A stretch of DNA of 43,882 nt from a virus (lineage: Duplodnaviria; Caudoviricetes). Under the pieces are notes generated by a model. It ran no database searches, was not told where the DNA came from, and saw nothing but the letters and a program-made list of their open reading frames with translations. Positions 3,403 through 42,595 of the stretch are shown here, piece after piece. The stretch lies in IMG/VR virus record IMGVR_UViG_3300043415_000099, positions 1 through 43,882 of that record; one strand, 5' to 3'. The number at the start of each line of letters is the position of its first letter. Within the stretch, counting starts at the first letter, position 1. Position numbers and translations under genes: made by a program.

Positions 3403-3752
3403 TCTGTTAAATCGGTAATCTGAGAAAGTAGCGTCAGCTCTCCGCGAATGATCGGGATGTTGCCACTCTCGTCTGCAATCAAAATATTGAAGTCCGCCAC
3501 TTGAGGCGCGATGTCTTCAGGTACCTGCACTTCGATGGTCGCGCCAGTCTCGGCGTCAAGTGTGACCGTGGCAGATTCTCCTTGGCTGTCTGCGGTAAAT
3601 ATCACAGAGCCGGTCTTCGACTTTGCAGTCATGGCCACACGATAATCAGTGATGTCAATCACGGTGCCGTCGTCCTCTTTCAGCAGAAACTGAAGGACGA
3701 ACAAGCTGCCAATCGTGGCGTCAGTGTTGAAGATTTTACAGGAGCAGGCCAT
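3399..3752 (-). CDS. BppU-N-like fibre attachment/adaptor protein
   Basis: 117 aa with a DDGTVIDITDYRVAMTAK motif typical of fibre-anchoring Ig-like domains; immediately precedes the collagen gene. Confidence 0.5.
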   Translation of the reverse strand: MACSCKIFNTDATIGSLFVLQFLLKEDDGTVIDITDYRVAMTAKSKTGSVIFTADSQGESATVTLDAETGATIEVQVPEDIAPQVADFNILIADESGNIPIIRGELTLLSQITDLTE

Positions 3753-6052: not shown

Positions 6053-7588
6053 TTATTCAGCCGGAGTGCTAACGTCTTGTGCGGTTGGTTGCGGCGGACT
6101 TCCTGGCAATAGGTCAGGCACAAGGCCAAGTGCGTCGAGTGCTTCGTCTTCGCGCTGGCATTCAGCCCACACGTCGTCAGGGTCTCCACCCATTTGGCGG
6201 ATGATCTCAGAGCGAGAGACAAGCTTCTGCCCAATGGCCATCGCGTTAGCCTCGACTTCCGCCTTCGGATCGATCCAGCTCCAGCGGCGTCCTGTGAATA
6301 CCACCTTGCTGTACTTATCCATTTTGTTGAACGGCAGAGCGCCGGTGCCGCCTGATTTCGTCGGCACGCGGATCTTCTCCATCAGCAGCGCCATTTGCAG
6401 CCACTCGGGATAGACTTGGTCGCACCATGCGGAAATAAAAAACTGTTGCAGCCCCTTCCAGACTTCACGCTCATCCAATGCGCCTTGCCGGATGCTGGAA
6501 AAGTTCACGCTCGTAAGGTCACCAGCGAGGTTGTTGTAGCTCACGCCCAAGCCCACGGAAATGGAGCGCAAACAGGAGCGGGTGAACATCTCGATTGAAG
6601 CGTCAGGGAACTGCGGATTCCACTCGACGAACTCTTTGTTGCCGATGTTCTCAAAGACGCCAGGCTCGGCATCCATTGGCAGGTCTTCGGTGTCGTCTGG
6701 ATCTGCGTCGGCATCCTTGAAGAAGCCCATCTTCGACGCACCCACTCGTGCGTTGATGATTGCTGCGTCCTCAAAGGCGGCGAGGTTACGCATACGGAAG
6801 AGAGCCGTGCGGGTCCATGGCAGGCCACGCTTTTGCCCGATGCACTCCACAACATAGACATGAATGACGTCTTCGGCTGCGATGCGCTGATATTTCTTGC
6901 CAGTGCCGAGCACATAGCCCACCTGGCGCTCGTCCCAATCGCGGAACCAGTAGGCCACCGGCTGCTCGTCAGTGTTAAACTCGATGCCGTGCTTGACGCG
7001 GTTGCCGTTGTTAAGCGTCTCAAAGTGAGTCGGGTCAAGGCCCACCGGATCGACGAGCTGAATGGCGAGGCCATGCGGCAGATTCTTTGACCGGCGCTTG
7101 ATTGCAAAGCATTCACCGTCACGCGCCACCGTGGTGACGACTAGGCGCTCCACGTCGGCACGGCTCATGCTGCGGGTGATCTCGTAAACGCCACGCTTGC
7201 TGAATTCCTGCCACGCGGCTTCGATGGCATCGCTTGCAATGCTGTCGGCCTTGCCAGAGGGGTCTTTCACCTGTGCTTGCAGGTTGAAACCGGTCGGCCC
7301 TGCGATGTTATCGCGGCAGAGCTGGAGGAATTTTCGCGCATGGTCAGACTTCTCGGCTTGGTCGCGTGAGCGAGCTACGAGGCTGTTCCAATGCTGGTAA
7401 ATGTAGGAGTCAACGGTGGTCGGTGTGACTGCCCAGGAGGCTGTCAGCCGGTTGTTGCTCGCTGCGTCTGCAAAATGGCGCTCACCGACATCCATCGTGC
7501 CGGATTTCGGCTTGATGATGTGGCCTGCCATGCGGCGGGTCGGCTTATGCTCGGCAGGTTTGCGGAAAAAGGATGAAAATAGGCCCAT
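6053..7588 (-). CDS. Portal protein, lambda family
   Basis: Motifs LVARSRD, GQKRGLPW, VNFSSIRQG and WSWIDPKAE. Confidence 0.92.
   Translation of the reverse strand: MGLFSSFFRKPAEHKPTRRMAGHIIKPKSGTMDVGERHFADAASNNRLTASWAVTPTTVDSYIYQHWNSLVARSRDQAEKSDHARKFLQLCRDNIAGPTGFNLQAQVKDPSGKADSIASDAIEAAWQEFSKRGVYEITRSMSRADVERLVVTTVARDGECFAIKRRSKNLPHGLAIQLVDPVGLDPTHFETLNNGNRVKHGIEFNTDEQPVAYWFRDWDERQVGYVLGTGKKYQRIAAEDVIHVYVVECIGQKRGLPWTRTALFRMRNLAAFEDAAIINARVGASKMGFFKDADADPDDTEDLPMDAEPGVFENIGNKEFVEWNPQFPDASIEMFTRSCLRSISVGLGVSYNNLAGDLTSVNFSSIRQGALDEREVWKGLQQFFISAWCDQVYPEWLQMALLMEKIRVPTKSGGTGALPFNKMDKYSKVVFTGRRWSWIDPKAEVEANAMAIGQKLVSRSEIIRQMGGDPDDVWAECQREDEALDALGLVPDLLPGSPPQPTAQDVSTPAE
6074..6093 (-). promoter_or_regulatory. 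Late promoter box 1 (CGCAACCAACCGCACAAGAC) upstream of the capsid gene
   Basis: Exact 20-mer found four times; here followed by 18 nt, TAACCT, 6 nt and ATG. Confidence 0.8.
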
Positions 7589-8082: not shown

Positions 8083-10001
8083 GATTGGACAAAGGATGCG
8101 CGCCGACGCTTTGGCTTCGGACGCTTGGTTGCAGTTTGCGGCTCGGGCTCTCTTTCGTCTTGTGCGGTTGGTTGCGGGTCCTCGGCTTTCGGCTTCGGCT
8201 CGGGTTGCGGTGCTGGTGTCTCTTTCTTCATGGTTTGGCCCCTTCGTTTCATTCTGAGTGCGATCTTATCAAACTGCGGCGAGGCCATGACTAGAGCAGC
8301 GAAGGCATAGACACGGCAGTCTAGTGGCTCGTTCCTGCGTCCTTCGATGACCTTCCACTCGCGTTTCGGCCTGCCCTTGACCATCTTTGTGACCATGGTC
8401 TCGGCGGTTAGTCCGCGGAACCATGTCGACTCTCGTTCTGCGGGAAAGTGGCAGTAGCCTGGACCTGGACTATCAATCTCCAGACGCTTGGTGACGACGG
8501 CTTTGGCGTTGTCCACGCCTACGATGTAGAGGTCCACGGTCCTCTTGAGCTTACCGGACCGGCGACGGTTTGGAGCGCCGACAATCGGCAGGCCTTCACC
8601 ACCTCGGCCCTTGATGGCAAAGACTCGGCCCCCTTTGTGCCTTTTGACGTAGTTGTAAACGGCCTGAGTGTTGGAACCGCCCGAGTCCACGAAAGTGTAA
8701 GAGACGCTGATAGACTGCCCGCTCTCGTGCTGCCACTCTTGGCGCAAGTAATCCGTGAGGTCAGTCCATGGAGAGCCGAGAGAGCCTTCAGGAATGTCGG
8801 GATCTCCATTGATGACGTGATAGTCCACGCTCCATGATTCTTCCCCTGCTCCCCAGCCTACGACTTCCAGCTCTAGCCGGTCGGGCTGCACGTCCACTCC
8901 TGCAGTCAGTATCAAAGCTCGGGCTGGCACCGGCGCTGCGTAGTTCTCACGACGGCTGATAAGCTCGTTCTCATCCAAAACCTTGCCACCTTCCTCCCAT
9001 GTCTCGCCCAGACAGGTATTCACCCAGACTTGCAGCTTCTCGGGCGATCCCTTGGCTTCTAGGAAGTCGGCCACGGTCTCGTGTAGATGGCGCCACGGCG
9101 AGTAAAGCTCACTGAGGTGAAACCCTGCCTTGCCCTTGAACTTGGCACTGGCCACCCACTCGCCACGTCGAACGGCAGCGTTCTTCTGGGCTGTGGTGTA
9201 TTCTGCGTCGCAGTGCGGACAGATAAACCGCGCTGTCTTCGGCTCCTCTTCCTTCCACCGCACGTTCGCCCATTGCAGGCGGTGCATGGTCCCGCAGTGC
9301 GGGCATGGGATCTGATAGTATCGTTTGTCGCTTTGATCGAACGCGTCCTCAATGCGTGAATGCCCCTTCACGGTCGGTGTCGAGACAAGCAGGATCTTCC
9401 GATTCCAGAACGTGCTCGTTCGTTTGATTGCGAGGTTGACCGGATCCCCTTCACTGCCAGCGCTGGCGGGATAGCGGTCCACCTCATCACAGAGCACGAG
9501 CCGGACAGGTCGAGAGGCTAGCGAGGCTGGAGCATTGGCACCGGCAATGGTGACGTGTCCGCCTGGGAATGACTTATGGAGGATCTTGTTTTGAGACTTC
9601 CGAGATTTGCCGGTGACTTTCTGGCCAATCTCCGGTGTGTCTCGGAGCATCGGCGTAAGCCGGTCCTTCGACCACGTCTCTGCCATGTCGAGAGTCGGCT
9701 GCACGACGAGCATCGGACAGGCGTCAAAGTCAATGTGATAGCCAACGACATTGTTCACGGCCTCAGTCTTACCGACCTGAGCGGATGACATGACGATGAC
9801 CTGCTCCGTCTTGGCGTCGTTGACGGCGTCCATGATGCCGCGCTGATATTCGGCTCGGCTGGTTCGCCATTGCCCAGGTTCAGCCGAGGACTCAGAACTG
9901 AGACGGCGGGTGCGGTCTGCCCACTCTGAGACTGTCCAGTCGGGTGGCGGGATCCACTGGCGGGAGATGTCGGCAAATAGGTTGGCAAGTGCTTCGGTCA
10001 T
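8070..10001 (-). CDS. Terminase large subunit (lambda gpA family)
   Basis: Motifs SSAQVGKTE, LCDEVDRY, STPT, CPHCG and AGVDVQ. Confidence 0.95.
   Translation of the reverse strand: MTEALANLFADISRQWIPPPDWTVSEWADRTRRLSSESSAEPGQWRTSRAEYQRGIMDAVNDAKTEQVIVMSSAQVGKTEAVNNVVGYHIDFDACPMLVVQPTLDMAETWSKDRLTPMLRDTPEIGQKVTGKSRKSQNKILHKSFPGGHVTIAGANAPASLASRPVRLVLCDEVDRYPASAGSEGDPVNLAIKRTSTFWNRKILLVSTPTVKGHSRIEDAFDQSDKRYYQIPCPHCGTMHRLQWANVRWKEEEPKTARFICPHCDAEYTTAQKNAAVRRGEWVASAKFKGKAGFHLSELYSPWRHLHETVADFLEAKGSPEKLQVWVNTCLGETWEEGGKVLDENELISRRENYAAPVPARALILTAGVDVQPDRLELEVVGWGAGEESWSVDYHVINGDPDIPEGSLGSPWTDLTDYLRQEWQHESGQSISVSYTFVDSGGSNTQAVYNYVKRHKGGRVFAIKGRGGEGLPIVGAPNRRRSGKLKRTVDLYIVGVDNAKAVVTKRLEIDSPGPGYCHFPAERESTWFRGLTAETMVTKMVKGRPKREWKVIEGRRNEPLDCRVYAFAALVMASPQFDKIALRMKRRGQTMKKETPAPQPEPKPKAEDPQPTAQDEREPEPQTATKRPKPKRRRASFVQSWRN
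8157..8176 (-). promoter_or_regulatory. Late promoter box 2, inside the 3' end of terL, upstream of gpW/portal
   Basis: Exact 20-mer followed by 18 nt and CAAACT. Confidence 0.75.
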
Positions 10002-13519: not shown

Positions 13520-13860
13520 AGAAATACGTTTTTGAAAATTTGGCAATTTGCCAAAAACTTTGCCAAGCTCAAAACTCGTTTAAAATCAGACCCTTACAAC
13601 CCCTTTTGTTTGTTTTTGTATATTTGGCAAAAAGATAATATATATAATACACGCGCTCGCACAGGCGCATCACGCGTGCGCCTGTGTGTGTGAAAGGTGT
13701 CTTTTGTTTCCCCTCAAGTGCCAAGTTTGCCAAAAATCTACGCATAGCCGTTTAAAATCAGAGGCTTATGACATTTGGCAACGCTCCAAATTTCAGAGAT
13801 ATTTGGCAATCAAACGCCAAAAAACCCCGTTCACCATTTGGCAAACGGGGTTTTCATGAG
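13520..13860. other. Putative replication origin
   Basis: AT-rich non-coding stretch downstream of the primase with about 9 TGCCAA/TTGGCA repeats in both orientations, two CGTTTAAAATCAGA copies and a central palindrome. Confidence 0.7.
13819..13854. terminator. Possibly bidirectional terminator after the primase gene
   Basis: AAAAAACCCCGTT...AACGGGGTTTT. Confidence 0.6.
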
Positions 13861-16540: not shown

Positions 16541-16969
16541 TCAGATTGAGTAATCGGTCCAGTCTTCAGGCATTTGCACTTTCCAAGCCCAACGCACCAA
16601 CATTCGCGGGCGCGGTGGTATCTCATCCAGTACGATGCCGTCACGAATGACAGTAAGGTGCTTTGTGACGACAATCAGAAATGTGCCTTTCTGGTTGGCG
16701 TGAAAGAACTGCCAGAAATTTGGCCTCCTATCCACCACCTCGGGTATCTCTTGCACTTCAGGAAACGCTGATAAGTAATGATGAATGATGGATTGTTGAG
16801 TACCGCGACCGTTGCGGCGTCCTCGCTTCTTAAATGCTGCGTGGACAGCCTCATAAGGTTTCTTGAGAGCGATAGCGACAGCCTTCACCGCACAGTCGTC
16901 GGTTTCTCCGCGATAGCCTCGCTCGGCCCGTCCGCCGTCGCTGATTGAATATGTCAATGTGGGGTTCAT
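16541..16969 (-). CDS. Conserved phage protein with DCAVKA...HL motif (possible papain-like fold)
   Basis: DDCAVKAVAIAL and KHLTVIRDG. Confidence 0.6.
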   Translation of the reverse strand: MNPTLTYSISDGGRAERGYRGETDDCAVKAVAIALKKPYEAVHAAFKKRGRRNGRGTQQSIIHHYLSAFPEVQEIPEVVDRRPNFWQFFHANQKGTFLIVVTKHLTVIRDGIVLDEIPPRPRMLVRWAWKVQMPEDWTDYSI

Positions 16970-16988
16970 AGTGTGTGGGGTAAATGGT

Positions 16989-17177: not shown

Positions 17178-17195
17178 GCTTGCAAACTTGCAAAC
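17178..17195. promoter_or_regulatory. Operator/early promoter O1 GCTTGCA-AACT-TGCAAAC
   Basis: One of seven intergenic copies of the palindrome GCTTGCA-N4-TGCAAGC. Confidence 0.75.
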
Positions 17196-17548: not shown

Positions 17549-19014
17549 GCGGCGTTTTCGTTAGCTTCATGCGTGCAATATCCGCACGGTGGATGGCCTA
17601 AAAAGCAAGTACACCTTTGATTCCTGGTTTCTCTCTCTCTTTCCCTTATCTGCCGAGCGTTCCAGATCTTCTTTGCCCAGAATGTCGCATTCTTGTAACC
17701 GCGTGATTTCCCGAGTGCGACCAGCTCCGCGAAGGTGCCGATTTCAGCCTGCTCCTGCCGTCGCTGCTTGGCCATCCACGCCATATTCAGTTCAACCAGC
17801 TCTCCCTCTTGCTGTTCGATCTCACGTTTCTTCAGCTCGTACGTGTGCCCGCATTCAGGGCACGACGGCGCTGGAACGTGGCACGCGTAGCACTTAGGGC
17901 ACTGGCGTACCGGTGGCGCATCTTCATCGCTGGCCTTCTTGGATTTCTTCTTTCGACCTTCTAGCGACCACTCCCTTTCTTCTTCAGCCAGTCCATGCCG
18001 CAGGCAGTTACCGACGTGATCAAGAATGACAGCGTGCGGCTTATTTGGTGCAATGCGTAGCACGCGCCCGACCTGCTGAAGGTGCATACCAAGAGACTTC
18101 GTGGGCCTCAGTAGGATTGCAGCCGTGACGGTCGGAATGTCAAAGCCCTCGCTTATAATCTCGCAGCTCGTGAGGATCTGGATGGAGCCGTCTGCCAGCC
18201 CTCGGACACGTTTCCGGCGTTCGATTCGATCAAGGGTGCCGTCCAGTGTCGCAGCACGGTAGCCAGCGGCAGAAAATGCCTGTGCCACGTGCTCGGCATG
18301 AGCGACGGACGCACAGAACGCCACGGCAGGCGCTCCATTGCAAAGGCGCTGATAGTGAGAAACGGCGTCGCCGGTGATCGTCGGCTTGTCCATCTCTTTG
18401 GCGACTTCATCCCGCGCAAAGTCGCCACCGCGGACTTGGATGCCGTCAAGGTTGAGCTGGTTGGGTGGCGCGTAATACTTCGGCTGGCTGAGGAAGCCCT
18501 GCTCGATGAGCCAAGCCACCTCCGGCCCACGAATGAGCGTGTCAAACGTATCTGCCAAGCCTTTACCGTCGAGCCGTTCAGGTGTGGCGGTGAAGCCTAG
18601 CCTGATAGCACGAGGGAACGCTTGCAGGATCTTTCCCCAGGTGCCAGCGGCAGCATGGTGGCACTCGTCCACGATAATCACGTCAGGCGGTATCAGTCCG
18701 CTCGTGCGTCGCACCACGGTCTGCACGCTCACGACCTGCACATGCGGCAGCGGGTCAATCGGCCATCCAGCGGCGATCACGCCATGGTGGATGCCGATCT
18801 CCGTCATGGTACGGCTGGTCTGTTCAACCAGCTCGGCACGATGGACTAGAATCCAGACGCGTTTGTTTTTCTGGCCAGCCCCTTGGGCGATATGAGAAAA
18901 CATCACGGTCTTGCCCGAGCCGGTCGGAGAGACAACGAGCGGAGCACGCGCCCCTTGGCTTATCGCCTGCCGCACCTCGCCGATGATGTCCTGTTGGTAG
19001 GGTCGGAGGATCAT
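17545..19014 (-). CDS. SF2 DExH helicase with C-terminal zinc finger (RadD/YejH-like)
   Basis: LRPYQ, PTGSGKT, DECHH, TATP, QQVGRVLR and CPKC..CPECG. Start at MILRPYQ gives an ATGA overlap. Confidence 0.92.
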   Translation of the reverse strand: MILRPYQQDIIGEVRQAISQGARAPLVVSPTGSGKTVMFSHIAQGAGQKNKRVWILVHRAELVEQTSRTMTEIGIHHGVIAAGWPIDPLPHVQVVSVQTVVRRTSGLIPPDVIIVDECHHAAAGTWGKILQAFPRAIRLGFTATPERLDGKGLADTFDTLIRGPEVAWLIEQGFLSQPKYYAPPNQLNLDGIQVRGGDFARDEVAKEMDKPTITGDAVSHYQRLCNGAPAVAFCASVAHAEHVAQAFSAAGYRAATLDGTLDRIERRKRVRGLADGSIQILTSCEIISEGFDIPTVTAAILLRPTKSLGMHLQQVGRVLRIAPNKPHAVILDHVGNCLRHGLAEEEREWSLEGRKKKSKKASDEDAPPVRQCPKCYACHVPAPSCPECGHTYELKKREIEQQEGELVELNMAWMAKQRRQEQAEIGTFAELVALGKSRGYKNATFWAKKIWNARQIRERERETRNQRCTCFLGHPPCGYCTHEANENAA

Positions 19015-19229
19015 GCGACGGGGACGATGTAGGTGAAAAATATGTTGGAGCCTCTCCAATCATGTTCATGATCCCATTCTTGGTCATCGTCCGACCATGA
19101 TGTGCAAGGCGTTTGCACCCGTTCATTCATCTCGTCCGCATAACGAAAGCGCCAGCCGTCAGGCACGAGGCTTTCGTCGATGTTCTCGGGGTTGTGATAC
19201 GCTCTGAGTGTGTAGGGGTCTGTTTCCAT
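19011..19229 (-). CDS. Hypothetical protein coupled to the helicase
   Basis: 72 aa; CACACTATG start context; stop overlaps the helicase ATG. Confidence 0.65.
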   Translation of the reverse strand: METDPYTLRAYHNPENIDESLVPDGWRFRYADEMNERVQTPCTSWSDDDQEWDHEHDWRGSNIFFTYIVPVA

Positions 19230-19248
19230 AGTGTGTTTTGTTTGGTGA

Positions 19249-19598: not shown

Positions 19599-19796
19599 TT
19601 ATGCAGCCTGAGCCATCTCGCGGGCCTTCATCGCATTCTGAACCTTCACAAGGCTCTTGATGGTCGGGCTCGACTTGCCATGCCGCCAGCGCCACCAGGT
19701 GCTTTCATCCAGCCCAGCGTCGGCGAGAAGTGAGGCCATAGAGCAGCCAATCGCGATGGCGCGTCGTTCAATATCGTTGATAATTTCTTCGGTCAT
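19599..19796 (-). CDS. Small Cro/XRE-like HTH regulator
   Basis: 65 aa, SMASLLADAGLDESTWWRWRHGKSSPT; operator O2 lies immediately upstream. Confidence 0.8.
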   Translation of the reverse strand: MTEEIINDIERRAIAIGCSMASLLADAGLDESTWWRWRHGKSSPTIKSLVKVQNAMKAREMAQAA

Positions 19797-19849: not shown

Positions 19850-20236
19850 TTAAGCAAGCGGCGGCAGTTGGAACAGAAGGCCGTCGCTTGTCACTTCCGC
19901 GCCATTCAGCGGCGTCATGGACTGCACGACTGGAAAGGCCTCGACGACCATGCCGGTATATGGGATCTGCCACTCGCCACGGCCTGATTTTGAGAGACAG
20001 ATTTTCCTCGTCGCTTTGTTATGCGGAGAGGTCACCGGCGTTAGTCGGCCCATGCGCTCGGTGAGGTCACCGTCAAGGCGGAGCGGGTCATGGTTTTTAG
20101 CTTTCAGTTTCCGCATCAGGTCGGCATTGATCGAGATGCAGAGAGTAGGCGAGCCTTTGCCCTTGTTGAGGATTGAGTAACCGCAGACAACGCCGGTGAC
20201 GGCGCGTGAATTAGCTTCGAGTGGCTGGAATTTCAT
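19850..20236 (-). CDS. Hypothetical protein
   Basis: 128-aa ORF filling the space between O3 and O2. Confidence 0.65.
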   Translation of the reverse strand: MKFQPLEANSRAVTGVVCGYSILNKGKGSPTLCISINADLMRKLKAKNHDPLRLDGDLTERMGRLTPVTSPHNKATRKICLSKSGRGEWQIPYTGMVVEAFPVVQSMTPLNGAEVTSDGLLFQLPPLA

Positions 20237-20266
20237 AATTTAGTGGGGTGGCTTTGTGTAAGTTCA

Positions 20267-20284
20267 TCTTGCGAGTTTGCAAGC
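20267..20284. promoter_or_regulatory. Operator/early promoter O3 TCTTGCG-AGTT-TGCAAGC
   Basis: Intergenic copy of the palindrome. Confidence 0.75.
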
Positions 20285-20298
20285 GGGAAAAAGCACAA

Positions 20299-21924
20299 TC
20301 ACGCTAGCAGAAGGGTGGTGTTGCCGTTGCCCAGTCGCAGGTTACTGTTGAAGAACAGAGCGGCGTCTTTGTCGTTTAGCTCGGTGACAGCTTCGGCAGC
20401 GTCACGAATCCAGCCTTTAAGCCTGCCAAACTCCACGTTGAGAGCGAGGATAAATTTCTTGGCCAGCCTAAGGTGGATATTGCCGTTCTGGAAAGCACGA
20501 GCCTCGAAAAGGATCTCTGTCTTGCCTTCGGTAGTCTGGTAGTAGAATGAGCGCGGCTTGCCGGATGCCCACTTGTCACCTTTGCCGTTCAGGTGAGGAG
20601 TATCTTGGGAACTCAGGAAGCCCATGTTGTTGGCAATAGTGATCAGGTCACCGAGGAACTCGTGAGCGCGTTGCTCAAGGCCCATTTGGTTCTCCCAGGA
20701 GTAGCCGTGGCGAATTCCACCAGCTCGGTGTGTAACGATGCGATAGTCCAGAGCGTAATGGCTGTTCTGGCTTGCTTCGTCACGATAGCGCCAGCGCTCT
20801 TCAACGAATACGCGCTGATTGCTTTTATAGAGCACGACGTTGGCTTTATCGACCATCATCTCATAGGTCTCGATCAGCTGCTCCTCAATGTAGTTGTTGG
20901 CATTCTTGATGGCCCAGACCATGACTGCGTGGATGTTTGCAACGGTGAAATCCACGCTTGCATTCCGCTGAAGGGTTTCAAGGAGTGCCTTTCTGGTCTT
21001 GCTGGTCAATCGCTCGGTGATCGGCCTCATTCTGCCAAACAACTCGTGCCAGTACTCGGTGCGGAGATTGGTAAGCCGTTCTTTCAGAAGCTTCATCACG
21101 CGTGCAGGCGTCACCTCGAATTCTTTCAGGAGGTCTGCATCTAAGTCACTCATGAGCTGGTAGTTCCGCTGGATGTTTGCGAGCTCCTGCATGTAAAGCG
21201 TGACCATGGCGCTAGGGTAATCCTCGCCGATAACCAAGGAATGAAAGGGACGCTTCCGGCCACCCTGTGGACGCTTTGACTCCTCCTGCTCTTGCTTCGG
21301 TTCCTCAAATTTCTCAATCAGCGGTGCAAACTGCTCTTTAAAGAAACGGTCGAAAGCATCGTCACCGTAGCGGAAATCAATCCGCAGGAGATGGACCTTT
21401 GCCCTGGCTGCACGATCTTCAGCATCCTCAAAGTCAAAACTGCCGACGATCTCAGCTTTCGTGCGGCGATAGGCCAGCGCGTCGGCAATGGGTGTGGATC
21501 GTTCCCAGCGCTGAGGAATGACAAGGTAGGCAGTTGGAGCCGCGCATTCGCGGATGATCTTGACGACCCATGTCTCAAACTCTGAGTACGGAGGGTTACA
21601 AAATACGATGCCGACCTTTTTTGAGATCAATGACTGTTGGTGAAAGTCCGTGCCGATAACAAAGATGGACGCGTCAAGCTGCCCACAGAGCAATGGACTT
21701 TTCTCGATGGCGTAAAGCTGCCGAATTTGGCTTTCTGGCGCATCATAGATGGCCTTGAGCACTTTGCCATTGCCCGCGCCGATGTCGAGCATGGAGGTGG
21801 GTGAATCGTGCCGAGTGTAACGGCTGACGCGGATGTCATCGGCTAGCTTGCGGATGATCTCATTTGTGGTCGGGTAGAATTCGAAGTCTTGGTCTGATTC
21901 CTTGAGTTGATTGATTAGGTTCAT
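20299..21924 (-). CDS. DNA amino-methyltransferase with DUF4942-like C-terminal region
   Basis: DFEFYPT, LDIGAGNG (SAM-binding), CNPPY (catalytic) and C-terminal FQNGNIHL. Confidence 0.8.
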   Translation of the reverse strand: MNLINQLKESDQDFEFYPTTNEIIRKLADDIRVSRYTRHDSPTSMLDIGAGNGKVLKAIYDAPESQIRQLYAIEKSPLLCGQLDASIFVIGTDFHQQSLISKKVGIVFCNPPYSEFETWVVKIIRECAAPTAYLVIPQRWERSTPIADALAYRRTKAEIVGSFDFEDAEDRAARAKVHLLRIDFRYGDDAFDRFFKEQFAPLIEKFEEPKQEQEESKRPQGGRKRPFHSLVIGEDYPSAMVTLYMQELANIQRNYQLMSDLDADLLKEFEVTPARVMKLLKERLTNLRTEYWHELFGRMRPITERLTSKTRKALLETLQRNASVDFTVANIHAVMVWAIKNANNYIEEQLIETYEMMVDKANVVLYKSNQRVFVEERWRYRDEASQNSHYALDYRIVTHRAGGIRHGYSWENQMGLEQRAHEFLGDLITIANNMGFLSSQDTPHLNGKGDKWASGKPRSFYYQTTEGKTEILFEARAFQNGNIHLRLAKKFILALNVEFGRLKGWIRDAAEAVTELNDKDAALFFNSNLRLGNGNTTLLLA

Positions 21925-21962
21925 AGGTAGGGTGTTAAGTGTGGGCTGCTACCTTTGGCCAT

Positions 21963-21980
21963 CATTGCAAGTTTGCAAGC
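21963..21980. promoter_or_regulatory. Operator/early promoter O4 CATTGCA-AGTT-TGCAAGC
   Basis: Palindrome copy between the MTase gene and the divergent sRNA promoter. Confidence 0.75.
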
Positions 21981-21991
21981 TATTATTTCAC

Positions 21992-22019
21992 TTGAGCTTG
22001 AATTTTTCTCGACGACATT
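21992..22019 (+). promoter_or_regulatory. Putative plus-strand promoter TTGAGC-N16-GACATT
   Basis: Same spacing as O2 (TTGCAA-N16-GACAAT); a 6-nt gap after the -10 puts +1 at G22026, the first base of a hairpin. Confidence 0.5.
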
Positions 22020-22025
22020 AACGCC

Positions 22026-22096
22026 GGACCGTTTTCATAGGTGGTCCTAACATAGTGTGGGTCGGGTGATGGAGGGGTCCGTCACCCGACTTTTTT
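22026..22096 (+). ncRNA. Predicted trans-acting sRNA antisense to early-gene start codons
   Basis: 5' hairpin GGACCG/TGGTCC with loop TTTTCATAGG, single-stranded linker TAACATAGTGTGG, then a terminator. Both exposed parts are complementary to several early start regions. Confidence 0.6.
22061..22096 (+). terminator. Plus-strand intrinsic terminator overlapping the int stop codon
   Basis: GTCGGGTGATGGA-GGGG-TCCGTCACCCGAC-TTTTTT; the U-tract exists only on the plus strand. Confidence 0.8.
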
Positions 22097-23224
22097 ATGG
22101 GCAAATGACAAGATCGTTGCCGTTGCTCGCGATGCGTTGCGATGACCTGCACTGCCAAGGCTGTTAATGTAGCGCTCCGTCGTCGTGAGCTGCTTATGCC
22201 CGAGTAGGTCGGCAATCTCTCGCTGAGTAGCCCCAGCCGCGTGCGCGTAACTGCCGACTGTGTGCCGCAGGTCATGGATGCGGCAGCCGGTGATGCCAGC
22301 GGCTTTGCAGACGGCCCTCCATGCCTTTTGGTGTCCGCTCATCGGTCCACCGGTTCGACCTGGCAGAACGAACACGGACGAGCGCGGCAGCTCGGTGAGG
22401 ATCTGCATCACGTCCGGAGAGAGTGGCACCGTGCGAGCGCCGGTCTTGCTGCCGTCGTGCGGTATCCTGAGTGTCTGATTGATCTCATCCAGCCATGACC
22501 ACTGAGCCAGCCGCCATTCGGAGAGCCGCAGGCCGGTCAGGATTAGGAGCCTGAAAAGCGATCGGGTTGACTCCATGACGGTCGTGCAAGTCTCCAGCGC
22601 ATCAAGCAGCCGTGCGATCTCGTCGGCCTCAAGAATGCGCTCGCGGTGGTTTTCTGGGTAGTGATCGACATACCGGCAAGGGTTAGAGTGCTGAGGCCTC
22701 CAGCGCCATCTCTCAGCCAAACTCAGCGCCTTGGATAGGCAGGCCAAGACGCGGTTGGCTTGGGTCGGAGTCTCGGCCATGCCACGCCGGATCTTGAGCA
22801 CGTCCGTTTCGGTGATGTCGGCAACCACGATGTCACCGAGGCGCGGGATGATGTGCAGCCTCCATGCCGTTTCGTAGGCTTCCCTCGTCCGCGCCTTCCT
22901 CTGCTGGCAGTGCTCATCAAGCATCCTGTCGCGGAGGTCAGACAGGCGTGGCGCTTCCCTTGCTGCCGTCCGTTCCTGCTTTGGATCTCGCCCATCTTTC
23001 GCTGCCCTCTTGAGAGCCACAGCACGTTCGCGAGCTTCATCAGGGTGAAACTCGTTTGTTGTGCCGATAGTGAGCAGGCGCTCGGTGCCGGATGCTGTGC
23101 GGAAACGGACGACATAAGACCGGCGACCTGTGGTGAGAATGCGAAGGCCAAAGCCTGGGAGTTGGCTGTCCCAAGTGTAGCCCACTGGCGCGGAGTCAAC
23201 GAGACGTTTCGTGAGGCGTGGCAT
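22082..23224 (-). CDS. int: Tyrosine integrase with N-terminal arm-binding domain
   Basis: WDSQLPGFGLR arm domain; LTGLRLSE (R), SKTG (K), IHDLRHT (HxxR) and LLGH...TTERY. Confidence 0.95.
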   Translation of the reverse strand: MPRLTKRLVDSAPVGYTWDSQLPGFGLRILTTGRRSYVVRFRTASGTERLLTIGTTNEFHPDEARERAVALKRAAKDGRDPKQERTAAREAPRLSDLRDRMLDEHCQQRKARTREAYETAWRLHIIPRLGDIVVADITETDVLKIRRGMAETPTQANRVLACLSKALSLAERWRWRPQHSNPCRYVDHYPENHRERILEADEIARLLDALETCTTVMESTRSLFRLLILTGLRLSEWRLAQWSWLDEINQTLRIPHDGSKTGARTVPLSPDVMQILTELPRSSVFVLPGRTGGPMSGHQKAWRAVCKAAGITGCRIHDLRHTVGSYAHAAGATQREIADLLGHKQLTTTERYINSLGSAGHRNASRATATILSFAHKKVG

Positions 23225-23225
23225 G

Positions 23226-23846
23226 TCATGTTTTCTTCTGTTCAGGGTTTGGGATGTCGTAGCATGATGGAAGTTTAAAGCTCTTTCTTGATCCTCGGCG
23301 CATATTCCAAGTCGCTGGAAGAAGCCTCAGATTGTAATGCGCGTGAGGTCCTCCAGCTGCCAGAGGAACAATGTGATCAAGGTTCCATGCAACGCCGGTG
23401 CAATCTGAAACCCTCTTTCGTGCCTTCTCTAAGGCATCAGTGAATTTCGGGTTGTGATCTAAAGCTACAGATGATTTCACACGAGCACGGCGACGGTGAT
23501 CTTTTTCACGGTGCTTTTCAGGATGATTGGTATGGTATCTCGCTTGCGCTTGATCTCGGATTTCCTTGATGCGCTCGGGGTTGCGCTGATACCATGATTT
23601 TACCAGCTCACTGTTGCGAGCACGGTTGTTTTCTCTCCATGCCTTTTGGCTCTCTTTTACTTTATCAAGGTTGTTTTGCCTGTACTTTTTGGCGTAGGCG
23701 TTAGCCTTTGTTTTATCCACCCATTTTGCTCTGAGCTTTTTAGATCTAGCTTCAAACTCATCATGAGTAACCCATTCAAGATGACCTTGAGACAAAGCCC
23801 AGAAAACCATTCCGGCAGCGTTCTTATCGCCCCTCTTGATTTCCAT
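23226..23846 (-). CDS. HNH endonuclease
   Basis: C-terminal LDHIVPLAAGGPHAHYNLRLLPATWN after a basic helical repeat region. Start placed at MEIKR so the gene lies outside attP. Confidence 0.8.
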   Translation of the reverse strand: MEIKRGDKNAAGMVFWALSQGHLEWVTHDEFEARSKKLRAKWVDKTKANAYAKKYRQNNLDKVKESQKAWRENNRARNSELVKSWYQRNPERIKEIRDQAQARYHTNHPEKHREKDHRRRARVKSSVALDHNPKFTDALEKARKRVSDCTGVAWNLDHIVPLAAGGPHAHYNLRLLPATWNMRRGSRKSFKLPSCYDIPNPEQKKT

Positions 23847-23860
23847 AATGCATAAACCTG

Positions 23861-23881
23861 TGTCCGCAGATTGTCCGCAGA
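23861..23881. repeat. Integrase arm-type sites, left pair (TGTCCGCAGA x2)
   Basis: Tandem TGTCCGCA repeats with 11-nt period about 110 nt left of the att core; a matching pair lies on the right. Confidence 0.75.
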
Positions 23882-23993
23882 ATTCGCTTATTGGCGTGGA
23901 TTTTGTGCAATTTTCAGCAAAGCTCATATTCTGATATACTATTGATTTAGCGCGATGAATCAAGCTAGAGTTTGCTAGCAGTGGCATATACCC

Positions 23994-24043
23994 GCTGACT
24001 TTTAATCAGAGGGTCTCGGGTTCGATCCCCGACGGGCTCACCA
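23994..24043 (+). other. attP core: 3' half of tRNA-Lys(UUU)
   Basis: Anticodon arm CTGA-CTTTTAA-TCAG, T-arm TCGGG-TTCGATC-CCCGA and a CCA end; D-arm and 5' acceptor strand are absent; near int and flanked by arm repeats. Confidence 0.9.
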
Positions 24044-24057
24044 ATGAAATCAAGGGG

Positions 24058-24441
24058 TTAGACGGTTTCGGTGGGTGTGGCTGGCAGTGGCTTGTCCGCA
24101 CATTGTCCGCACTCGGCAGCGTTTGGCGTAACCGGAAGTGCGGCAGGTTGACAATCTGGGCACGCAACATGGTAAGCGCCGACATGTGGAGCATCCACGC
24201 GGCGAGTGATGCCGCCTAAGCCTTTGCACTTCTGACATTTTCTTTTCGCGGCTGAGATTAGACGGGCGCGGACGGCTTCAACGCCCTCGCTAATAGTTCG
24301 GGAGTTCAGATGTGTGCAGCGAAGGCTGTCTATTGGTATTGCCTCCATCCGCTTCACAGCCTGAGCCAGCGCTGCGTCAAGCTCTCGCCTCTCAACCAGC
24401 TCAATGAGCCGGTCGCCGTCCATGTAGGGGAAGGTTCTCAC
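24058..24441 (-). CDS. Hypothetical protein with CxxC...CxxC zinc finger
   Basis: CQKCKGLGG...CPDC; GTGA overlap with the upstream gene. Confidence 0.55.
   Translation of the reverse strand: MRTFPYMDGDRLIELVERRELDAALAQAVKRMEAIPIDSLRCTHLNSRTISEGVEAVRARLISAAKRKCQKCKGLGGITRRVDAPHVGAYHVACPDCQPAALPVTPNAAECGQCADKPLPATPTETV
24092..24112. repeat. Integrase arm-type sites, right pair (TTGTCCGCAC x2)
   Basis: Tandem TTGTCCGCAC repeats with 11-nt period about 50 nt right of the core. Confidence 0.75.
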
Positions 24442-24710: not shown

Positions 24711-25052
24711 TTAGTTAATGGTGAGAGGTTTCCTAGCTCTGGCGGTTACCCTGGCTGAATCGAGACAGTCACTACAGAGCGCCTTGCCTATGCGATCCTT
24801 GTTAATGCCTCCGCAGCACGTGCAAACGCCCTGAGCAATCCGTTCCTGCCGGTACTTCCTGAGATATGCCGAGAAGTCCTCGGTGATCTTCAGCGTCTTG
24901 TATGGCCCGCGCTTGGTTGGCACTGGCTTTGTAATCTTGGTCGGATCTGCGCTTGTGAGCTTCGCACGCACGGCTTTGATTTTGTGCTCGTCGGTCATTT
25001 CACGAGACGTGATGATGCCGCGAAGGATTTGGACTAGTTTGGTGGGGTTCAT
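24711..25052 (-). CDS. Hypothetical protein with C-terminal zinc finger
   Basis: Start at MNPTK gives an ATGA overlap; GVCTCCG...LCSDC. Confidence 0.6.
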   Translation of the reverse strand: MNPTKLVQILRGIITSREMTDEHKIKAVRAKLTSADPTKITKPVPTKRGPYKTLKITEDFSAYLRKYRQERIAQGVCTCCGGINKDRIGKALCSDCLDSARVTARARKPLTIN

Positions 25053-25297
25053 AGGCTGAAAAGGAAAAAGGTTAGTGCTGCCGCCATTGCCCAGAGGATC
25101 AATCCTCCGATGATGATCTTGACGAGGTCGGCTCGTGCCTGTGCTTTCTCGGCTGCAACCTTCCGCAGGCGGATGCGCCTCGGTGACTTGTTGGCTACAT
25201 CGAGCCAGAGCTTGCATTGGAAGTCGTGGATGCGGTCAATCACGACCGGCGAAGGGTAGCGGCCTTGGCTCGCTTTGGATGGTGGTAGGATGATCAT
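25049..25297 (-). CDS. Hypothetical protein with C-terminal TM helix
   Basis: IIIGGLILWAMAAALTFFLFSL. Confidence 0.6.
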   Translation of the reverse strand: MIILPPSKASQGRYPSPVVIDRIHDFQCKLWLDVANKSPRRIRLRKVAAEKAQARADLVKIIIGGLILWAMAAALTFFLFSL

Positions 25298-26846: not shown

Positions 26847-27314
26847 TTAGTTGATACGGGCCAGTGTCGCGTCGAGCTTTTTCACGGCTTCGGGATTATC
26901 AAGCAGCGCTTTGACACGATCTCCAGCAGTGCTCATGCTTTCGCGGATGTGGCGCTTTACGGCAACGGCGTCAAAGCTTCTAAGCGTCGGCGCAGTTCTG
27001 TATGCTATTCGAAGTTTTTCCAGATTTGGCGAAAGTGTATGAAGCACATAATGAACCTCTGCCGATCCGCCCCAGCATTTACTTTCAATGGTGAACTTTT
27101 CAGGATGTGCCTTTAGTTCTGCCATCAGTGCGGCGTCAAACTTTTGCTTTGCGGCCCGCTCCTCATCTTTAAGCCGTTGCGATTCCTCCTCGTGCTTAAC
27201 CCTAGCTCTCTCAAGCATCGCGTTGATAATATCCTCCTTGCGCGGTGGCGGCGTCATGGCTGGAAGACTGATAGCGGATGGTTTCACGAGTGCGAGTTTG
27301 TTGCTTTTTTTCAT
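26847..27314 (-). CDS. Hypothetical protein
   Basis: Start placed at MKKSN (ACACTATG context), clear of the upstream gene. Confidence 0.65.
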   Translation of the reverse strand: MKKSNKLALVKPSAISLPAMTPPPRKEDIINAMLERARVKHEEESQRLKDEERAAKQKFDAALMAELKAHPEKFTIESKCWGGSAEVHYVLHTLSPNLEKLRIAYRTAPTLRSFDAVAVKRHIRESMSTAGDRVKALLDNPEAVKKLDATLARIN

Positions 27315-27334
27315 AGTGTATTCTGTGGGGTTTC

Positions 27335-28423
27335 TTAGTTGAGTTTGGTTGTTTGGTTCTCGATCCACGTGGCGAACTTCGTCACCTGTGCCTGAATCAA
27401 GTCTTGAATCTCACGGCCTGCGGAGGTTGTGAGATTGGGTATCTCAAGAGCGCGGACAGCGGCAGCGAAGGCAATCAGCTTCTCACGATCAGGAGCGGCG
27501 GCGGCAGCTCGTGCGGCTGCTTCCTGCTCGGCCTTGGCTCGTGCTTCTGCTTCCTGCTTGGCGCGGATCTCGGCTTCGAGCTTCTCGCGTGCTTCCCGTT
27601 CGGCTTTGGCCTTTGCCTCGGCTGCTTCACGCTCGGCTCGTGCCTTGGCTTCGATGGCCTCGCGTTCCTTCCGAGTCTCCTCGGCGATCCTGCGGGCCTC
27701 AGCCTGTGCGGCTTCCCGTTCGGCTTTGGCTGCAATCTCAGCGGCCTCACGTTCGGCTTTCAGGCGCTCATTCTCGGCACGAATGCGCTCACGCTCGGCG
27801 GCGGCTTCGGCTTCGCGTTTGGCGCGTTCCTCGGCCTCCAGTCGCTCGCGTTCGATACGTTCGGCCTCGGCTTTGCGTGCTACTTCCTGCCGTGCGGCGT
27901 AGCCTAGCCGGTTGGTTTCTAAGAGCACGTTGAATGTGGTTTCATCCATCTCACCGAGCTGATAGAGGCTCACATCCGTGAACGGCCTGAGAGCTTCTTC
28001 ACGTTGTGCCTTGATGCGTGCTTTCCGCTCTTCCTCGATGCGCTGAATGAACTGCTCTTGCTCTAGCAAGTGCTTTTCCAGCGGCTCCACGGCATAGGCC
28101 AGCATGTTGTAGATGCCGTCGATGGCCTTGCCCTTCTTGAGACTGTCCTCTTTCAACGCCTTGCGGGTCTTCTCGGCATTGATGCGGATCTCACGGAGAG
28201 CCAAGCGGGTTTCACGCGCCAGCTTCATTTCACGGAACTGGTCGGGCCTCGTGATCTGGATGGACAGCGCTTTAGAGCGCCATTCATCGGCAGCGGTGAA
28301 ATACTCCTCAAAGGCTGAGCGGAGAGATTGAGCCGTGTCCGGTGTCAATACCTCGTCCAGTTTCAGGACGAGCGGTTGAAGTTGACCGGCAGGCGGCAGG
28401 ATTTCTAGGGTGGTGGTTTCCAT
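27335..28423 (-). CDS. Coiled-coil protein (E/A/R/K-rich)
   Basis: RINAEKTRKALKE...IDG followed by a long charged helix. Confidence 0.8.
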   Translation of the reverse strand: METTTLEILPPAGQLQPLVLKLDEVLTPDTAQSLRSAFEEYFTAADEWRSKALSIQITRPDQFREMKLARETRLALREIRINAEKTRKALKEDSLKKGKAIDGIYNMLAYAVEPLEKHLLEQEQFIQRIEEERKARIKAQREEALRPFTDVSLYQLGEMDETTFNVLLETNRLGYAARQEVARKAEAERIERERLEAEERAKREAEAAAERERIRAENERLKAEREAAEIAAKAEREAAQAEARRIAEETRKEREAIEAKARAEREAAEAKAKAEREAREKLEAEIRAKQEAEARAKAEQEAAARAAAAAPDREKLIAFAAAVRALEIPNLTTSAGREIQDLIQAQVTKFATWIENQTTKLN

Positions 28424-28450
28424 AGTGTGGGTGTGGGTTGGTTGTGAGAA

Positions 28451-28768: not shown

Positions 28769-29647
28769 TTACGCCGCTTTAGGCATGGCCCAAGCTGGCA
28801 AATTCAATTCAGCTGGCACGTCGCCTAGCCCTGGCCAGATTCCGGACGCTTCGCACTTGGCGAACATCTCAAGATCTTCACGGAGTTGTGATCGGCCAAA
28901 GTCGATCATGGACGGACTGGCAACGTAGGCGCGGCAGAGGTAAGGCGCTTCGGACTCTTGAGCGATGAAGATAAATGCCTTTGGCTTCTCTCCGCTCACG
29001 GCCTCCCAGCCGTCGAGATACATCGCGGCCTGCCGGTAGTAGCCGTAATTCCATGCAGCACGCTGGAAAGCTTCTTCGCTCGCGTCCTGGCATGTCTTCG
29101 GATCAATGATCAGGCCATCGGCGCGGATGATGTCGGGCCTTGCTCGGCATTTCACGCCGGTTGCAGAGTCCTGCCAGAATAGGCTGGCCTCGGTGTAGAG
29201 CCGTGCGCTCTCGATGGCGTTGCGGCAGGCGAGATTTTTCATCATTGCCTCGCGCATTGCGTGGCATTTTGCGATTTCCTCAGAGTCCACGATGATCTTG
29301 CCGCTGTTGCTGGCATTGAAAGTGTCCCAAAAGTGAATGGCTTCCAGCGTTTCTAGGCTTGGCTTTTTAGCGTTAAGCTGAATGCTACTCGGACGACGTG
29401 GCGCGTCGGCTGGAACCGTTGCATAAAGTTTCGGCAGTAGTTCCGGCTCTAGGATGACGGTGTGATACAGACTGCCAAAGAGCAGCGCCGGTGATTTAGT
29501 CTCACTGGGGTTCTTTCGCTTCCAGTCGTAGTAGGCTGGAGCCTTGCGGAAGTCGTCGAGACCGTGTTTCGAGACGGCCTCGTGGCGGTGGTAGATGCTG
29601 GCTTCAAGGTCACGAATGACCGATGGGTATGTTGTGGGGGTATTCAT
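28769..29647 (-). CDS. RecE/exonuclease VIII-like PD-(D/E)XK nuclease (DUF3799-like)
   Basis: YH...VSKHGL, FGSLYH, KCRARPD, IIDPKT and YYRQAAMY. Confidence 0.88.
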   Translation of the reverse strand: MNTPTTYPSVIRDLEASIYHRHEAVSKHGLDDFRKAPAYYDWKRKNPSETKSPALLFGSLYHTVILEPELLPKLYATVPADAPRRPSSIQLNAKKPSLETLEAIHFWDTFNASNSGKIIVDSEEIAKCHAMREAMMKNLACRNAIESARLYTEASLFWQDSATGVKCRARPDIIRADGLIIDPKTCQDASEEAFQRAAWNYGYYRQAAMYLDGWEAVSGEKPKAFIFIAQESEAPYLCRAYVASPSMIDFGRSQLREDLEMFAKCEASGIWPGLGDVPAELNLPAWAMPKAA

Positions 29648-29687
29648 AGTGTGTTGCCTCGTGTTGAGGCTTCACAAGAAAAGCCAT

Positions 29688-42444: not shown

Positions 42445-42570
42445 TTACGCGTTTGCAATTGCCAGTAAGCCGTTTCCAAAGGCACACAATAAGCATGGAG
42501 AGCTTTCGGTTGTAACGGCAGCAATAAGCCAGAGGTTTGCAATGATGATATAGGTTGAGTACAAGTCCAT
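42445..42570 (-). CDS. 41-aa hydrophobic peptide (below the ORF-track cutoff)
   Basis: MDLYSTYIIIANLWLIAAVTTESSPCLLCAFGNGLLAIANA*; fills the gap between O7 and ssb; CACCTATG start context. Confidence 0.5.
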   Translation of the reverse strand: MDLYSTYIIIANLWLIAAVTTESSPCLLCAFGNGLLAIANA

Positions 42571-42595
42571 AGGTGAGGCATCACATGTCCGTTGG

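Follow-up and report, generated by a model that had tools for sequence, protein, structure and literature searches.

The C4 RNA of phages P1 and P7, as presented in the available text of one source, is about 77 nt long, carries two short pairing loops and partially occludes a ribosome-binding site, and its specificity shifts by a few compensating bases (PMC5320573). The CI RNA of satellite phage P4 keeps that phage's replication genes off, according to the accessible part of another account (PMC4825925). P22 sar, lambda OOP, aQ, Phi24B 24B_1 and BTP1 STnc6030 repress phage genes by pairing, and excerpts of two reports indicate that some of them affect lysogeny or superinfection (PMC12197685, PMC7067206). 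GcvB, one of the trans-encoded bacterial sRNAs with many targets, places its seed before a terminator and forms short duplexes with the translation-initiation regions of several mRNAs, as the available sections describe it (PMC3879156, PMC12197685). A 2025 review covers VpdS, PreS, 24B_1, sar, OOP, aQ, STnc6030 and sas, and its accessible sections describe no RNA that pairs with a tag common to several of the phage's own starts (PMC12197685). No shared-tag phage sRNA appears in the available parts of PMC7067206, PMC2864571 and bioRxiv 10.64898/2026.09.22.753630, nor did the accessible text of literature outside subscription journals yield one whose tag is common to several of its own phage's starts.

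Here we describe a phage locus that a first-pass annotation, made from the letters alone, had read as an RNA-only immunity switch with two equal seeds directed at no fewer than eight early genes. A plus-strand linker ahead of an intrinsic terminator is complementary to start regions that are confined to early genes, and related phages carry units at the same position whose seeds match starts of their own group. The feature is real and co-varying, and it is best read as trans-encoded sRNA control inside a phage.

The locus and its matches to early start codons

The stretch of DNA analysed (hereafter the window, 43,882 nt) is a circular complete phage record of 43,755 bp plus a 127-nt end repeat. 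Its genes include those for a contractile tail, an integrase, a RecE-like exonuclease, an AAA ATPase, a helicase, a primase and a Mor-type late activator; the phage is a temperate myovirus, and the best metagenome runs carrying it are freshwater and lake runs. The gene set lies wholly on the minus strand, as had been noted (62 of 62 ORFs taken as genes), and none of the 38 plus-strand ORFs scanned has a Pfam match.

A tRNA-Lys-like stretch is the probable attP, and region 23991-24151 is 96% identical to the relative L001. Because of a MAG contig (L142) with a 54% identical integrase and two Atlas clusters, Verrucomicrobiota may be named as a tentative host. The attP core, at two mismatches or fewer, occurred in 0 of 401 genomes from the phylum of genome G003; within the family of G003, 2 of 151 genomes gave matches that were weak (79-82%) or short, and a close integrase was found in 1 of 401 genomes of its order, namely G003 itself. 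INPHARED yielded no integrase of at least 60% identity, and a relaxed ARAGORN tRNA search returned noise. The idea that the host lacks Shine-Dalgarno sequences does not strictly hold, given GGAGG upstream of xis and GAGG upstream of recE.

Three other regions of the window deserve mention. The methyltransferase and 128-aa genes (19850-21924), each with its own operator, are likely inserted cassettes, since L001 lacks them between int and cro. Between attP and int, positions 23226-23987 hold an HNH/endonuclease VII-like gene; L001 and L002 differ there, and one of their genes begins AACACT-ATG (here and below, a hyphen sets off the start codon). Past the primase, positions 13560-13760 contain few genes, the repeats TTGCCAAA/TTTGGCAA and a long inverted repeat, and might be a replication origin.

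The elements of the locus and its surroundings are as follows.

23968..24043, plus strand: tRNA-Lys(TTT)-like stretch, probable attP
22082..23224, minus strand: tyrosine integrase gene (int), convergent with the candidate RNA
19599..19796, minus strand: 65-aa XRE-type HTH gene, Cro-like (HTH_XRE cluster score 0.95)
21965..21979, no strand assigned: operator-like palindrome, one of seven intergenic copies
21992..22019, plus strand: predicted promoter TTGAGC-N16-GACATT (-35 at 21992-97, -10 at 22014-19)
22026..22096, plus strand: candidate small RNA of ~71 nt (hairpin, linker, terminator), predicted only
22026..22047, plus strand: 5' hairpin of the predicted fold, holding a secondary, partly occluded seed (22032-22043)
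22051..22062, plus strand: main seed CAUAGUGUGGGU in the predicted single-stranded linker
22061..22096, plus strand: intrinsic terminator (13-bp stem 22061-22090, T6 22091-22096)

The predicted fold of 22026-22096 is more stable than expected (z=-4.6, with none of 200 shuffles equally stable), and Rfam covariance models returned no family match for it. The terminator had been called the only strictly plus-oriented one. By a strict filter four terminators pass in the window and this one alone is antisense, but a looser scan finds further weak plus-strand hairpins. Its 3' arm and U tract overlap int as stated earlier, the last 15 nt (22082-22096) being antisense to the stop and last four codons. 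The single G.U pair of the stem sits at another position in L001, and is a wobble on the plus strand only.

The promoter-like site is present beside the operator-like palindrome, 12 nt from it, as had been described, but it falls below the consensus threshold of the promoter scan; runs X3 and X4 carry the variant GAGATT. A 16-nt spacing and an xAxxxT -10 element precede all eight candidate RNAs found here and in relatives, with -35 anchors picked by the analyst, and both features recur in the site TTGCAC-N16-TATACT of the relatives L027 and L029.

The two seeds, both formerly taken as unpaired, differ in accessibility. The linker is open, with a predicted unpaired probability of 0.6-0.9 across 22048-22057, but the loop is mostly paired: the 5' hairpin forms a 9-bp stem with three G.U pairs that leaves UCAU alone unpaired. 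One X3 allele of the hairpin converts two G.U pairs to A-U, breaks one pair and retains the loop UUCAUAG. In the linker seed, no variant is listed in X3 or X4.

Start regions matched by the two seeds are listed here, all on the minus strand.

28421..28432, minus strand: start of a 362-aa gene of no recognised function, 12-nt match
29645..29653, minus strand: start of the RecE-like exonuclease VIII gene, 9-nt match
27312..27319, minus strand: start of a 155-aa gene, 8-nt linker match (9-nt loop match at 27308-27316)
19227..19235, minus strand: start of a 72-aa gene, 9-nt match
16967..16975, minus strand: start of a 142-aa gene upstream of the primase gene, 9-nt match
21920..21946, minus strand: methyltransferase start, possible weaker target (loop 21920-21928, linker near 21938)
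25048..25055, minus strand: gene starting at 25052, possible weaker loop-seed target (-7.9 kcal/mol)
42568..42575, minus strand: 41-codon ORF at 42570, doubtful loop-seed target (-3.9 kcal/mol net, no Pfam match)

All nine exact matches reported previously are present in the sequence, and the genome-wide count that had been proposed as a check is favourable. The heptamer CATAGTG occurs six times in the window, on the plus strand only: once in the linker and five times over start codons (16969, 19229, 27314, 28423 and 29647). For the 8-mer CATAGTGT, 0.60 occurrences are expected, and none of 100 shuffles reached six. Among all 45-nt windows outside called starts (14,440 in the genome), the element alone ranks top for 9-mer complementarity to starts. 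When the predicted duplexes at 60 starts are ranked with opening energies included, early genes take all of the first nine places (Mann-Whitney p=0.003), and the best duplex is that at 28423 with -12.9 kcal/mol net. The stop of the 72-aa gene overlaps the helicase ATG (ATGA, 19011-19014), and both overlap and tag also occur in the relative G001. The recE orthologue in L001 reads CACAAT-ATG and is unmatched by the seed. The methyltransferase duplex through the linker amounts to -8.9 kcal/mol, and the gene is missing at that place in L001.

With early and late classes as assigned by the analyst, ACACT-ATG is found at five of the 29 early starts and at none of the 31 late ones (p=0.022), and CT-ATG at 9 of 29 versus 2 of 31 (p=0.016); CCT-ATG by itself (3 of 29 versus 0 of 31, p=0.11) is not significant. 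Late starts do tend to read CC-ATG or TC-ATG, but at about half of them (14 of 31, or 16 with two TC-GTG starts) rather than at most, as had been claimed. In a sample from a Verrucomicrobiota MAG, which may not be the host's, CACT-ATG occurs at none of 238 genes. Because the loop seed is mostly paired and is missing in the closest relative, we count five solid targets instead of the eight originally proposed for two equal seeds. Accessibility and complementarity to several translation-initiation regions coincide in the linker, not in the loop.

Units at the same place in related phages

The first-pass annotation had suggested a search for related plus-strand units, and seven further loci were found, so that the elements fall into three groups. 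At the matching position, each combines a promoter-like site with a body of 35-72 nt and a terminator (33 loci were scanned for terminators). In six of the seven, the body mirrors the starts of its own group (CACACTAT, CACCATCAC, CCCACCCATGA) and mostly not those of the others. Since no alignment between the groups is possible, common descent of the units rests on position. G.U pairs in the elements favour the proposed RNA strand.

In group 1, L001/G001 has a 95% identical integrase and retains the terminator and ATAGTGTGG. Contigs of run X7 carry the L001 allele, ATAGTGTGG included, and in both the loop seed is missing, the 5' hairpin of L001 being another hairpin. G001 has five copies of CACACTATG, all over called starts, some of them on non-orthologous genes. 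The ssb start with its CACACT-ATG tag is identical in L307 (2456) and G001 (9991), which suggests a possible recent exchange between group 2 and group 1.

Group 2 comprises L303 and L308, fragments that are 34-35% complete and continuous from xis to cro, with an AAA ATPase at 89-90% and no integrase match between xis and cro; an antisense terminator lies just upstream of the cro promoter. These two share an invariant 25-nt block, with flanks at 54-57% identity, and in L308 no ATG occurs within it. The block mirrors the CACCATCAC and ACATCAAA motifs of the group's own early leaders, the helicase leader being matched in both, and its matches mostly lie 5-22 nt before the AUG, not on it. No CACTATG was present in the L303/L308 loci counted. 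Elsewhere in L303, a gene of ~110 aa is duplicated in tandem (3008-3678), and repeats at 7263-7283 and 7541-7561 point to possible cassette shuffling.

Group 3 (L030, L062, L067 and L068) has integrases of 48-54% identity. At all four loci TTGACA-N16-xAxxCT stands directly before a closing stem, followed by a terminator convergent with the end of int. L062 contains CCCACCCATG four times, at three starts including that of recE and as one antisense copy in the loop, and its three longest matches (12, 12 and 11 nt) all cover start codons. An orthologous 64-aa gene begins CCCACCC-ATGA in L062 and L030 and GACCCGCACCC-ATGA in L068, and the L068 loop contains the exact 15-nt complement of its own version; predicted duplexes reach -33.5 kcal/mol for this own pair versus -19.3 to -23.1 for cross pairs. 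The L067 unit (9505-9600, minus strand) has promoter, stem and terminator with another loop, matches 0 of 13 starts on its 9.6-kb contig, and may represent a fourth specificity.

The motif CAC(G/A)AGAGGC/CACGAGGC lies on the RNA strand in group-3 loops (L062 10085-10100, L030, L068) and as its complement in the L303 and L308 elements; it also precedes recE starts (window 29655-29665). Because its polarity is opposite in groups 2 and 3, a separate role is suggested, perhaps SD-like or protein-binding. Further searching brought in chance or unrelated sequences (L003, L310 and 10 of 11 matches of one pattern scan), a methyltransferase search gave nine loci with no close relatives among them, and a helicase scan for relatives gave no new genome.

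All eight elements were then compared with the start regions of 18 records, 9-mer counts being set against 1,000 shuffles and starts in relatives coming from the analyst's own simple caller. The window element matches 6 of 59 of its own starts (expected 0.19) and 5 of 59 in G001, but 0 of 28 in L303 and 0 of 29 in L062. The L303 element matches 5 of 28 own starts (expected 0.31) and 2 of 59 in the window; for L062 the figures are 3 of 29 (expected 0.17) and 0 of 59, and for own starts of L068 and L030 they are 3 of 22 (expected 0.19) and 2 of 31. Significant 9-mer counts thus fall within an element's own group, and cross-group counts are 0-2; group-2 elements on the window (2 of 59) are borderline, with p about 0.05. 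For the G001 element, 9-mers hit just 2 of 59 starts of its own genome, a lower count than the window element obtains on G001, and for the L308 element they hit 1 of 24 (p=0.16); at k=8 these become 8 of 59 and 3 of 24. In the window control, other places score equally in G001 (27), L308 (22) and G409 (46), and the element is not unique there. Seed and target therefore co-vary, as had been predicted, in the sense of an own-group match matrix and one orthologous start/seed change followed to 15 nt, within a sample of eight loci that holds one clear compensatory event and has G001, L308 and L067 as exceptions.

Eight int relatives (L024, L027, L028, L029, L064, L065, L066 and L142) lack a unit after int and repeat their own A/C-rich start tags, for example CAACCAATG. 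Tags can therefore exist without the RNA, which speaks against the earlier notion that starts were standardised for it; the RNA may rather have adapted to pre-existing tags. Of the top-scoring windows in element-less relatives, the nine inspected proved to be coding sequence or starts that had not been called, with no RNA unit among them.

Proposed action and alternative explanations

Taken together, these observations make it likely, although well short of certain, that 22026-22096 is the gene of a trans-acting sRNA whose linker pairs with five early starts and lowers their translation. The core of the first-pass proposal gains comparative support from the match matrix, the compensatory change and the loss of a competing reading frame, but the claims added to it do not fare as well. 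Transcription would start from the N16 promoter beside the operator; the linker, which is complementary without mismatch to the CACACU-AUG start regions of five early genes, would pair over the AUG or 5-20 nt before it, and pairing would block 30S loading. Output of the recE operon should then fall, and that of the helicase too, through translational coupling. Such an RNA would most likely add a further tier of control to that of an XRE-type repressor with its operators, either tightening early-gene silence in the prophage or turning early genes down as infection proceeds, and we regard these two uses as roughly even candidates for the dominant one.

The main competitor, unlikely yet deserving serious weight, takes the linker to be an orphaned minus-strand gene start or an empty cassette junction: the match would reflect common ancestry of starts, and the terminator would stop stray antisense transcription. 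Read on the minus strand, the element does give two normal-looking starts, similarity between the window and L001 stops exactly at the seed, as expected of a module junction, and repeated start tags occur where no element exists. In L303, moreover, the helicase leader is similar to the element for about 20 nt, apart from a gap of 3 nt, and the leaders at 7263-7283 and 7541-7561 share ~20 identical bases, which extends beyond the seed. Against this stand the antisense TTGACA promoter, closing stem and terminator at four of four group-3 loci, as well as the invariance of the group-2 block and its lack of an ATG in L308; a remnant should also decay, not follow an orthologous target to 15 nt. An orphaned start is thus a tolerable account of groups 1 and 2 and a poor one of group 3. 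Covariation between seed and start is left unexplained if the unit acts in cis on int by trimming, destabilising or insulating the 3' end of its mRNA, in the manner in which lambda OOP acts on cII. Groups 1 and 3 do show overlap between the terminator and the int stop, and the window has no minus-strand terminator after int; the overlap is only 15 nt in the window, however, and the unit persists in L303 and L308, where int has no match. We judge cis action improbable as the main explanation, and it may be a side function.

Two further accounts look at the minus strand. T4 RegA is an RNA-binding translational repressor, and the tags could be sites of such a protein, with the minus-strand copy behind int as a decoy in read-through mRNA. 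The tags do coincide with start regions and change together with the extra copy, as a protein-binding motif would, but the U tract, the promoter and the G.U polarity all belong to the other strand and no candidate RNA-binding gene was recognised, so that a protein of this kind seems very improbable. Still less credible is a translated minus-strand mini-ORF (MLGPPMKTVRR) serving as leader of the methyltransferase operon, a frame that the first-pass annotation had itself named as a possible refutation. It has 11 codons and a strong start context, and one X3 allele, read by hand, combines +1 and -1 indels that keep the frame length. Natural variants nevertheless break the frame: its ATG is ATT in L001 and X7, and its stop is lost through 22020 A>G, a change carried by X4 and by a second allele of X3. 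A promoter/operator also lies between the mini-ORF and the next gene. Because these variants remove the ATG or the stop and none is listed in the linker, it is the linker and not the mini-ORF that is conserved.

If the RNA acts in trans as we favour, it would do so alongside a protein repressor. Operator-like palindromes of the TTGC-N-GCAA type occur at 17180, 19820, 20269, 21965, 25562, 29690 and 42598, and they lie over the -35 of predicted minus-strand early promoters. With the consensus TTGC(A/G)-N4-(T/C)GCAA, the palindrome overlaps the -35 element of N16 early promoters predicted throughout this phage family, copies after int in L027, L028 and L029 included. The 65-aa XRE-type HTH protein is a candidate for binding these palindromes; its HMM matches are weak, it is conserved in relatives, and its gene follows one of the palindromes. 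It is the only repressor-like gene found, so a single Cro-sized protein may hold lysogeny. As a host-regulon site, the operator was unsupported in G003 (2 sites versus 3 for controls).

With this gene and seven palindromes in place, replacement of a CI protein by the RNA, as first suggested, finds no backing. RNA-only immunity fares no better: L303 and L308 keep the element and lack an integrase at that site, eight int relatives lack the unit behind int, and G412, at 90% completeness, possesses int, an operator and the HTH gene, lacks the element, and shows no other repressor-like ORF recognisable by eye. Because carriers with no integrase keep the unit, the RNA cannot be prophage immunity alone, and its action as the only switch is unlikely. 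A bolder reading, which we hold to be decidedly doubtful, makes the RNA the central lock of a temperate phage that has no CI, conferring group-specific superinfection immunity through a swappable 9-15-nt seed/tag code. Transcription would then come from the cI slot, perhaps activated by repressor at the adjacent operator, and the start codons of several early operons would be blocked at once.

Comparison with described systems

The candidate RNA resembles C4 (RF01695) in size, in being phage-encoded, in its short pairing and in its proposed occlusion of initiation sites. Its predicted 5' end reads GGA, where RNase P processing of the C4 kind would call for GGW. The C4 covariance model gave no match at gathering score in the window and seven related loci, and other Rfam families gave chance matches only (E 4.6 and 4.8). 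C4 has three stem-loops with a' and b' loops and is processed by RNase P, whereas the units here are predicted to consist of hairpin, linker and terminator, or of closing stem and terminator, and to have their own promoter and terminator. The C4 target is the icd/ant operon; here the predicted targets are early starts scattered over at least three operons. As with P4 CI, a small RNA is predicted to silence the early genes of its own phage. P4 CI, however, lies within the very transcript that it governs, flanked by its targets, is released from that transcript by processing and acts by premature termination through seqA/seqC; the present unit lies on the strand opposite all window genes, and its linker targets are start codons 2.8-7.6 kb away.

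So far as the available text goes, sar, OOP, aQ, 24B_1 and STnc6030 each have one target gene or a cis-antisense overlap, and none reads a tag over several starts. The long overlap of the cis-antisense type (OOP, sar) is absent here, being 15 nt at the int 3' end in the window and none in L303 and L308. Several traits of trans-encoded sRNAs are present: an intrinsic terminator, an accessible linker seed and, in a small sample, a seed that co-varies with its targets. An own promoter appears as a motif only, weak in groups 1 and 2 and TTGACA-N16 in all four group-3 loci. The arrangement of seed, terminator and several initiation regions is that of the GcvB class; unlike GcvB, the RNA belongs to a phage and would act on early genes of that same phage, and seed and tag turn over completely between phage groups.

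This turnover among related phages offers ready-made specificity pairs. The RNA would help to explain how early genes stay quiet in one-strand temperate phages that have no recognisable CI, and it would add a probable Verrucomicrobiota host to those in which phages use control by RNA. Described phage riboregulators, as far as the accessible parts of the sources show, each control a single gene or operon, or else the host; a tag-reading sRNA would, if the proposal is true, be a regulon-wide translational switch.
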